From a virus (lineage: Duplodnaviria; Heunggongvirae; Uroviricota; Caudoviricetes), in IMG/VR virus record IMGVR_UViG_2872164251_000005: a DNA stretch of 24,546 bases; one strand, given 5' to 3'. The stretch's first letter is position 1. Every line of letters starts with the position of its first letter. Made by a program: the position numbers and the translations under genes. Below are positions 3,075 through 3,561 of the stretch, one piece after another. A model generated the notes under the pieces. The model ran no database searches, was not told the DNA's origin, and saw nothing but the letters and a program-made list of their open reading frames with translations.

Positions 3075-3136
3075 AAGGCATATATTTCATGCAAATCTGA
3101 TACTTTGCCGATTTTGTACGCGATGGTAAAGTAAGC

Positions 3137-3162
3137 AAAACCCGCCGCCGAGCGGTTTTTTT
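3137..3162 (+). terminator. Intrinsic terminator-like hairpin plus T7 after the Q-like ORF (candidate tR'-type late terminator)
   Basis: GC-rich stem AAAACC(C)GC / GCGGTTTT with a short loop, followed by TTTTTTT at 3156-3162. Confidence 0.5.
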
Positions 3163-3250
3163 ATGCCTGAAAAATGGCACAGGACGTTAAACGTGCTGGT
3201 GGTCAGATGAGTTTGCAGATGTGATGACATATGGTTATTATTCTGCCTCC

Positions 3251-3327
3251 GGCCCTTTAGCTCAGTTGGTCAGAGCGAGCGACTCATAATCGCCAGGTCG
3301 CTGGTTCAAGTCCAGCAAGGGCCACCA
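3251..3327 (+). tRNA. tRNA with CAU anticodon, most similar to tRNA-Ile2 (lysidine type, ileX/ileZ-like) rather than tRNA-Met
   Basis: Manual cloverleaf: 7-bp acceptor stem GGCCCTT/AAGGGCC, anticodon loop CT-CAT-AA, T-loop GTTCAAGTC, 3' CCA encoded. Closely resembles the E. coli ileX sequence as remembered. Confidence 0.8.
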
Positions 3328-3328
3328 A

Positions 3329-3405
3329 CCACCACTAGCTCATCCGGATAGAGCATCAACCTTCTAAGTTGACGGTGCGAGGTTCGAGTCCTCGGTGGTG
3401 GGCCA
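3329..3405 (+). tRNA. tRNA-Arg (anticodon UCU), argN/argU-like
   Basis: Manual cloverleaf: acceptor CCACCAC/GTGGTGG, anticodon stem TCAAC/GTTGA, loop CT-TCT-AA, T-arm CGAGG-TTCGAGT-CCTCG, CCA encoded. Starts 1 nt after the previous tRNA. Confidence 0.75.
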
Positions 3406-3407
3406 GC

Positions 3408-3483
3408 GCCGACTTAGCTCAGCAGGCAGAGCAACTGACTTGTAATCAGTAGGTCACCAGTTCGATTCCGGTAGTCGGCACCA
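3408..3483 (+). tRNA. tRNA-Thr (anticodon UGU), with one A-C mismatch in the T-stem
   Basis: Manual cloverleaf: acceptor GCCGACT/AGTCGGC, anticodon stem ACTGA/TCAGT, loop CT-TGT-AA, T-loop TTCGATT, CCA encoded. Confidence 0.65.
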
Positions 3484-3486
3484 TAT

Positions 3487-3561
3487 GCGGGCATCGTATA
3501 ATGGCTATTACCTCAGCCTTCCAAGCTGATGATGCGGGTTCGATTCCCGCTGCCCGCTCCA
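3487..3561 (+). tRNA. tRNA-Gly (anticodon UCC)
   Basis: Manual cloverleaf: acceptor GCGGGCA/TGCCCGC, anticodon stem TCAGC/GCTGA, loop CT-TCC-AA, T-arm GCGGG-TTCGATT-CCCGC, CCA encoded. Confidence 0.75.

Follow-up and report, generated by a model that had tools for sequence, protein, structure and literature searches.

It is textbook knowledge that Shiga toxin (Stx) phages and other lambdoid phages carry transfer RNA (tRNA) genes between the late-gene antiterminator gene Q with its terminator tR′ and the late genes, and a role in tRNA supply has been proposed for those of the Stx phages. The ileZ-argN-argO cassette of the Stx phages 933W, Sp5 and Stx2a_F349 lies at this place, and the lambdoid phages of Shigella and Salmonella (SfI, Sf6, ST64T, phage 21) carry one or two tRNA genes (Asn-GUU, Thr-UGU) there. 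In the case of phage SfI, a Thr-UGU tRNA downstream of Q was described together with a codon bias for ACA, and a tRNA-supply role was proposed (PMC3636060). Here we analyse the corresponding region of a prophage of the IMG/VR collection (record IMGVR_UViG_2872164251_000005), a 24,546-nt stretch of DNA that is referred to as the window at its whole length, in which four tRNA genes, Ile2(CAU)-Arg(UCU)-Thr(UGU)-Gly(UCC), follow a Q gene of the Q82 type. With a probability of roughly 0.8, this locus represents, in a lambdoid prophage with a Q of the Q82 type, the junction for late control and, behind it, a mobile and self-promoted operon of four tRNA genes that supplements the reading of rare codons. 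It is an ordinary element of a known kind, in that RefSeq already annotates genes identical to those described here, and E. coli prophages commonly have related arrays; the additions made in this study are modest, namely a map of promoter, pause element and terminator, a conserved internal promoter, the host origin of the Thr and Gly genes, and the variability of the anticodon in the second slot of the array. The features that make up the junction and the operon are as follows.

2385-3074, + strand: Q82-family late-gene antiterminator gene, 229 amino acids (PF06323 Phage_antiter_Q, E 8e-90, profile positions 1-217 of 220)
3058-3086, + strand: late promoter PR′, TTGCAA (3058-3063), 17-nt spacer, TATATT (3081-3086), from a promoter scan and a 24-locus alignment
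3091-3163, + strand: predicted leader RNA from PR′, about 70 nt long, containing the conserved block AAATCTGATAC, in which a -10-like sigma-dependent pause element, GATACT (3099-3104), is located
3137-3163, + strand: intrinsic terminator tR′, a short G+C hairpin followed by T7
3213-3241, + strand: candidate promoter of the tRNA operon, TTGCAG, 17-nt spacer, TATTAT, ending 9 nt before the first tRNA
3251-3327, + strand: tRNA-Ile2, anticodon CAU, ileX/ileZ type (ARAGORN; Rfam RF00005, 70.5 bits)
3329-3405, + strand: tRNA-Arg, anticodon UCU, with the body of the argN lineage (C1-G72, A20, G73) (ARAGORN; RF00005, 56.4 bits)
3408-3483, + strand: tRNA-Thr, anticodon UGU, thrU copy (ARAGORN; RF00005, 69.8 bits)
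3487-3561, + strand: tRNA-Gly, anticodon UCC, glyT copy (ARAGORN; RF00005, 64.9 bits)

The array lies in the same place as the Stx-phage cassette, between tR′ and the late genes, and its first and second tRNAs are 96% and 83% identical to those of that cassette, the second with the same C1-G72 body. In both, the first tRNA is preceded by TTGCAx-17-TATTAT, from which location a transcription start has been mapped in Sp5. The window differs in carrying UCU and not UCG in slot 2, in having copies of thrU and glyT in place of the argO-type tRNA, in the absence of stx genes behind the array, and in an antiterminator of the Q82 type instead of the Stx-phage type. Of ileZ, argN (UCG) and argO (UCU), the array has only an ileZ homologue and a homologue of the argN body; no argO-type gene was found in it (60% identity at best). 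A second likeness is to the Ile-Lys(UUU)-Thr-Gly arrays found in E. coli prophages with a Q82-type Q, such as UMNK88 and a large number of IMG/VR prophages, which share with the window the Q family, PR′, the position of the terminator, the four slots, the spacers, and the Thr and Gly genes, with DNA 87-90% identical across the region; slot 2, however, has anticodon UUU, loop CCUUUAA and U73 in these arrays but UCU, CUUCUAA and G73 in the window. A third likeness is to the host operon thrU-tyrU-glyT-thrT of E. coli: its mature Thr-UGU tRNA is 97% and its Gly-UCC tRNA 100% identical to that of the window, whereas tyrU, thrT and the spacers and flanks of the host operon are all missing from the array.

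Exactly four tRNA genes, all on the + strand, were detected by ARAGORN in the window. The scores with RF00005, for which the gathering score is 29 bits, correspond to E-values of 1e-10 to 1e-14, and chance matches are therefore excluded. Each of the four genes forms a cloverleaf above this threshold with an anticodon loop of 7 nt, the spacers between them are 1, 2 and 3 nt, and CCA is encoded at the end of all four. The original prediction, made from the sequence alone, had described a terminator and four tRNA genes with anticodons CAU, UCU, UGU and UCC, spacers of 1-3 nt and encoded CCA ends behind a Q-like open reading frame (ORF), and had named tRNA software as the means to verify the folds and anticodons. 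ARAGORN accepted all four folds with these same anticodons, Rfam and the sequence itself agreed, and the ORF and the terminator turned out to be a PF06323 Q gene and the hairpin with T7 at 3137-3163.

The tRNA with anticodon CAU is called Met by ARAGORN, by its anticodon alone. It is identical to K-12 ileX at 69 of 77 positions and to ileZ of Stx2a phage at 74 of 77, and its acceptor stem, GGCCCTT...AAGGGCC, contains the pairs C4-G69 and C5-G68, which are the determinants for TilS that mark tRNA-Ile2. In addition, a gene identical to it carries the RefSeq annotation tRNA-Ile. Its D loop has an insertion that is specific to the array. We thus identify it, in accord with the Ile2-type assignment that had been proposed, as a tRNA-Ile2 of the ileX/ileZ type, which is predicted to receive lysidine at C34 and to be charged with isoleucine.

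The Arg-UCU tRNA is 83% identical to argN of Stx2a phage and only 70% identical to K-12 argU. It shares with argN the unusual pair C1-G72, and Rfam flags no non-standard pair in it. Its D loop, ATCCGGATA, places A at position 20, and C35 and the discriminator G73 are present as well. Since arginine identity for E. coli arginyl-tRNA synthetase resides in A20, C35 and a purine at 73, the gene has the sequence elements expected of an arginine acceptor, and it is assigned by its body to the argN lineage of Stx phages.

The Thr-UGU tRNA agrees with K-12 thrU at 74 of 76 positions, both differences, C16 and C20, being located in the D loop, and the Gly-UCC tRNA agrees with K-12 glyT at all 75 positions; by this comparison the two prophage genes are copies of host thrU and glyT. 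In the host these genes are set apart by tyrU and a 116-nt spacer, while the prophage copies stand 3 nt apart. A comparison of the sequences flanking host thrU and glyT with the prophage array revealed no shared sequence, and a simple capture of a segment of the host operon was rejected because the host flanks are not common to the prophage.

Between tR′ and the first tRNA we identified a second conserved promoter-like site, 3213-3241, that the original prediction had missed; the promoter scan reported it in the register TTTGCA-18-TATTAT. Four upstream lineages, one of them that of an Stx2a phage, retain the hexamers, 17 nt apart and 9 nt from the tRNA, with differing spacer sequences, and the motif accompanies the cassette behind three unrelated antiterminator types. 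An intact E. coli prophage (L001) shares the segment 3154-4239 with the window at 98.8% identity; there the upstream gene codes for a DUF1133 protein, not a PF06323 Q, and genes for holin, lysozyme, spanin and terminase come after the segment. Behind a third Q type, that of Stx2a phages, stand homologues of the first two tRNAs. The tRNA cassette can thus be regarded, from these comparisons, as a separate mobile module with a conserved promoter of its own. Mapping in the Stx2a phage Sp5 has located a primary transcription start after tR′ and before the tRNAs (PMC7547250); the motif is conserved in the window, and the mapped start belongs to Sp5 only, which is another phage. By analogy, the promoter at 3213-3241 is probably active in the window, making tRNA expression independent of Q. 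From the conservation of the motif behind unrelated antiterminators and from the start in Sp5, we infer that the array is transcribed constitutively without Q, and in addition by read-through from PR′ when Q is active. The cassette promoter and the K-12 ileX promoter are alike in the -10 region and the bases downstream of it, but their alignment needs a 4-nt gap and homology between them is unproven.

In order to place the array among its relatives, 97 related loci were surveyed, 82 of which carry tRNA genes after Q. The commonest set was Ile-Lys(UUU)-Thr-Gly (41 of 97), followed by the Stx type Ile-Arg(UCG)-Arg(UCU) (15 loci), Ile-Lys-Arg (11 loci) and the window type Ile-Arg(UCU)-Thr-Gly (7 loci), the remaining tRNA-bearing loci being smaller variants. 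A pair of thrU-type and glyT-type genes is present in 52 of the 82 tRNA-bearing loci, indicating that Thr and Gly tRNAs are the rule behind this family of Q82-type Q. The view of the original prediction that these two are less usual at this position was thus not borne out, and a Thr-UGU gene in this place was already on record for SfI. The exact array of the window, at an identity of at least 99%, was found in only 4 of 5,426 complete E. coli genomes. The genome of Shigella flexneri SFBU1023 (CP182556.1) contains both an Ile-Lys-Thr-Gly and an Ile-Arg-Thr-Gly array (loci L009 and L015), about 120 kb apart and each with a Q82-type Q. In the loci from Citrobacter, Raoultella, Buttiauxella and an unclassified Enterobacteriaceae isolate (L010-L013 and L016-L019), the promoter TTGCAA/TATATT and the AAATCTGATAT block are kept, the hairpin and T-run of the terminator are present in all except L019, and no tRNA genes were found downstream of Q. 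Because these distant genera possess promoter and terminator without tRNAs, the cassette appears confined to the sampled Escherichia and Shigella loci and looks like a later insertion in that lineage.

Some anticodons varied among the relatives. The slot-2 body, with C1-G72 and of the argN lineage, bears UCU, UCG or UUU in different prophages, and its UUU (Lys) form, seen in L002 (4307-4383) and about 50 other loci, has the loop CCUUUAA, in which C33 replaces the near-universal U33, together with U73. In slot 1 of L041 the ileZ body has CGU in place of CAU, and in slot 3 of L053 the thrU body has UUU in place of UGU, the bodies being otherwise unchanged; these one-base changes in L041 and L053 could be decay, sequencing errors or anticodon shifts.

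The Q gene starts with ATG at 2385, preceded by GGAG, and its product is 99% identical to those of loci in S. flexneri SFBU1023 and a strain labelled E. coli. PF06323 represents the Q82 family, one of three unrelated families of Q (PMC9388147), and the full profile is covered. A search of the PDB by sequence with this Q gave a single match at chance level (E 0.012, a phage lysin), and no structural homologue was found. PR′ overlaps the stop codon of Q, and its -35 element is located within the 3′ end of the Q ORF. The late promoter had been expected within 3075-3136; this proved correct for the -10 element at 3081-3086 but not for the -35 element at 3058-3063. The region of the Q stop codon was aligned for 24 loci, including prophages of Citrobacter, Klebsiella, Raoultella and Buttiauxella with Q only 58-68% identical, and TTGCAA of PR′ was near-invariant (23 of the 24), the -10 element was largely kept, and the block AAATCTGATAY was the best-conserved non-coding stretch across genera. 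Transcription from PR′ should start near 3091-3093, giving a leader of about 70 nt. Late transcription of phage 82 pauses at +25 (PMC4914094), and, by analogy, sigma-dependent pausing and loading of Q are expected at the GATACT element. Altogether, Q is followed at once by a predicted sigma-70 promoter, then by a -10-like pause element soon after the expected start and by an intrinsic terminator ahead of the late genes; this is the layout expected of a Q82-type PR′ with sigma-dependent pause element and tR′. The late region of phage 82 (Q82, 82PR′, the Q-binding element, the +25 pause and the terminator) is matched by the window in Pfam family, promoter directly after Q, early -10-like element and terminator; this likeness is one of layout and Pfam family, and the Q-binding element is unplaced in the window.

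RNAalifold detected no consensus structure over 11 diverse PR′ leaders; each leader is able to form a hairpin after the pause element, but the alignment registers differ and no conserved leader hairpin is claimed. The window sequence 3091-3162 (+ strand) aligns over the full length of the Rfam family isrK (RF01394) with 17.4 bits, below its gathering score of 50, though its position just after a Q-like gene corresponds. IsrK is a short RNA made directly downstream of the Q-like antQ of Salmonella Gifsy-1 (PMC4825925), and, as with IsrK and with StxS of the Stx phages, a short constitutive RNA between the Q gene and the terminator is to be expected in the window also. The full-length match below threshold fits the reading as a PR′ leader of about 70 nt, while family membership is not claimed. 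Other Rfam matches below threshold were set aside as look-alikes of tRNAs or terminators, namely Plastid-ycf2 (antisense of the tRNAs), STnc370 (antisense of the terminator), YrlA, MIR1515, snR75 and Leu_leader. Apart from L019, the relatives show the tR′ hairpin and T-run at a constant position, with stem sequences that differ between lineages. The terminator is weaker in the window: its right arm is one G short (GCGGT versus GCGGGT), and the hairpin therefore folds at -7.4 kcal/mol, whereas close relatives reach about -13. Homology to the L001 cassette begins at 3154, within this right arm, and tR′ for this reason looks like a recombination joint.

In order to examine codon usage, the synonymous fractions in the phage genes of the window plus ipaH were compared with those in 26 K-12 genes that are not highly expressed, and 59 codons were ranked by enrichment. 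AGG ranked 1st, AGA 2nd, ATA 4th, GGG 5th and ACA 7th, so that five of the seven codons read by the array are among the top seven (hypergeometric P = 8e-5), supporting the original suggestion of a lambdoid late-region tRNA cluster for rare codons; the enrichment that had been proposed for AUA, AGA and ACA was thereby observed. The genes of the intact prophage L001 gave the same codon pattern, and ipaH alone was strongly enriched in ATA, AGA, AGG and ACA. Against diverged relatives, the tRNAs have changed at 17 of 305 positions and the non-coding flanks at 56 of 183 (P = 2e-13); against L001, the counts are 0 of 305 and 13 of 781 (P = 0.025). Codon bias and tRNA conservation, taken together, fit a tRNA-supply role.

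According to the reading that we favour, PR′ would fire constitutively to give the short leader ending at tR′, and Q, when present, would load at the conserved pause element and take RNA polymerase through tR′, the tRNA genes and beyond. The sigma-70 promoter at 3213-3241 would transcribe Ile2-Arg-Thr-Gly as a single precursor, without need for Q. Because the spacing is tight, RNase P would have to cut each 5′ end and exonucleases to trim the trailers of 1-3 nt to the encoded CCA, a step that follows the established tRNA processing of E. coli. The four tRNAs, once aminoacylated, would duplicate the low-copy minor isoacceptors ileX/Y, argU, thrU and glyT of the host and would raise the capacity to read AUA, AGA/AGG, ACA/ACG and GGA/GGG, which are over-used by the phage genes and by acquired genes such as ipaH, with a possible effect on fitness.

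The window as a whole is a decayed lambdoid (lambda-like) prophage in a Shigella-type genome, in which insertion sequence (IS) elements flank the region described above.

1-1023, - strand: integrase gene, the first feature of the prophage
1024-2287, + strand: IS3-family element of 1264 bp, probably IS600 (HTH_Tnp_1 and rve domains), replacing the whole early region upstream of Q
4240-5690 (right end approximate), - strand: IS110-family element (DEDD_Tnp_IS110 and Transposase_20), replacing the genes from holin to head

As a result of these replacements by IS elements, nothing is left of the early region or of the genes for lysis and head. Homology to L001 ends at 4239, where the holin gene should begin, and the lysis and morphogenesis genes that belong to a Q82-type unit do not follow here, the IS110-family element extending from the holin start to the packaging gene FI, which starts at 5723. 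After FI the order is a second copy of the 1264-bp IS3-family element (6596-7859), the tail genes Z to J, lom, the tail fibre genes and ipaH. The tape-measure gene is split into two ORFs (10223-13053) and the region of tail gene I is in two overlapping ORFs (14865-15505), which is further evidence of a defective prophage. The 98 nt between the first IS3-family element and Q align with the 3′ end of rusA in the relative L002. The orfB frames of the two IS3-family copies are 1426-2388 and 6998-7816; that of the first copy extends 48 codons past its usual end, leaving the IS and crossing the start codon of Q, and because of this overlap transcription out of the first copy might feed Q.

Several observations weigh against the reading favoured above. 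The baseline for codon usage consisted of only 26-35 genes from one 50-kb region of K-12, and among the 59 codons ACG ranked only 16th and GGA, which the original prediction had listed with the other three codons, only 20th. Purifying selection among the closest Shigella relatives was not demonstrated, the differences being too few, and the conservation of Thr and Gly could reflect recent capture or gene conversion and not selection. These two add dosage only, because they are identical or near-identical to host genes. Moreover, IS elements have taken the place of the early, lysis and head regions, so that the phage no longer profits from the array and a present role, if there is one, must serve the host. 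It might then be argued that the array persists by chance, as an inert remnant of a dead prophage without present function, and the loss of these genes, the split tape-measure and I genes and the 1-nt loss in the terminator arm would agree with that. We consider this quite unlikely, in view of four tRNAs that are identical to those of L001 while the flanks have changed, of the intact Q and both intact promoters, and of the retention of the same array in several Shigella-type genomes. A further reading, also of low probability, is the domestication of the array, in which its own promoter would keep it expressed after the death of the prophage and Shigella would retain two versions per genome, the extra Ile2, Arg-UCU, Thr-UGU and Gly-UCC raising the translation of AT-rich acquired virulence genes (ipaH and genes of the virulence plasmid). 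Should the dead prophage still express the array, four single- or low-copy minor tRNAs would be present at twice the gene dosage in a pathogen that has acquired genes in which the matching codons are over-used.

Two other explanations bear on the expression and the purpose of the array. The tRNAs might be purely late genes, transcribed solely from PR′ when Q suppresses tR′, with 3213-3241 not being a working promoter. The array does lie behind tR′ and ahead of the late genes, in the orientation of PR′, stx2 in Stx phages is mainly transcribed from PR′ under Q, and the -35 sequence TTGCAG of the window agrees with the consensus at only 3 of 6 positions. Such a dependence on Q is nevertheless unlikely, given that the spacer diverges but hexamers, spacing and distance to the tRNA stay constant, whichever of the three unrelated antiterminator types stands upstream, and that a primary start lies at the corresponding location in Sp5 (PMC7547250). 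Alternatively, the array might replace host tRNAs destroyed by anticodon nucleases or colicins rather than adjust codon supply. The divergence of the slot-2 body (70% identity to argU), its three anticodons among relatives and the unusual C33 of the UUU form speak for a function of this kind, and this variation recalls published phage tRNAs with changes in the anticodon loop. The Gly and Thr tRNAs, however, have the same anticodon loops as their host counterparts and would be cut as readily, the Arg tRNA of the window has an ordinary CUUCUAA loop, and the codon bias specifically matches the four anticodons. As an account of the array, counter-defence is therefore very improbable; Thr and Gly, being identical or nearly so to host tRNAs, are unlikely to act against nucleases, whereas such a role is possible for the divergent slot-2 tRNA, a lineage that could represent an evolvable tRNA slot shaped by the pressure of anticodon nucleases. 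We thus retain the self-promoted, codon-supplementing operon as the best account of the array.

Downstream of the tRNAs, 680 nt of non-coding DNA lead to the IS110-family element, and the following features were assigned there.

3562-4239, + strand: non-coding DNA from behind the tRNAs to the place where the holin gene once started, 98.8% identical to L001 until 3 nt before its holin gene
3820-3845, + strand: candidate intrinsic terminator, a 7-bp hairpin followed by TTTTTTGT, -10.7 kcal/mol
3861-4239, + strand: pre-holin leader of a lysis cassette of the DLP12/Qin type, by homology to prophage leaders
4176-4202: candidate hairpin terminator

Two ORFs in this region, 3606-3821 and 3898-4086, gave no Pfam matches, in good agreement with the original remark that nothing toxin-like follows the tRNAs. 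The terminators at 3820-3845 and 4176-4202 could, as judged from their predicted structures, stop the constitutive tRNA transcript before the lysis genes. The segment 3861-4211 matches sites in about 1,400 E. coli genomes at about 84% identity, among them 639 sites beside iss on ColV plasmids; it corresponds to the leader before class II holin genes of DLP12/Qin-type lysis cassettes and carries no annotated feature in most records. Finally, about 200 nt of non-coding DNA (5460-5690) lie upstream of the IS110-family transposase gene.

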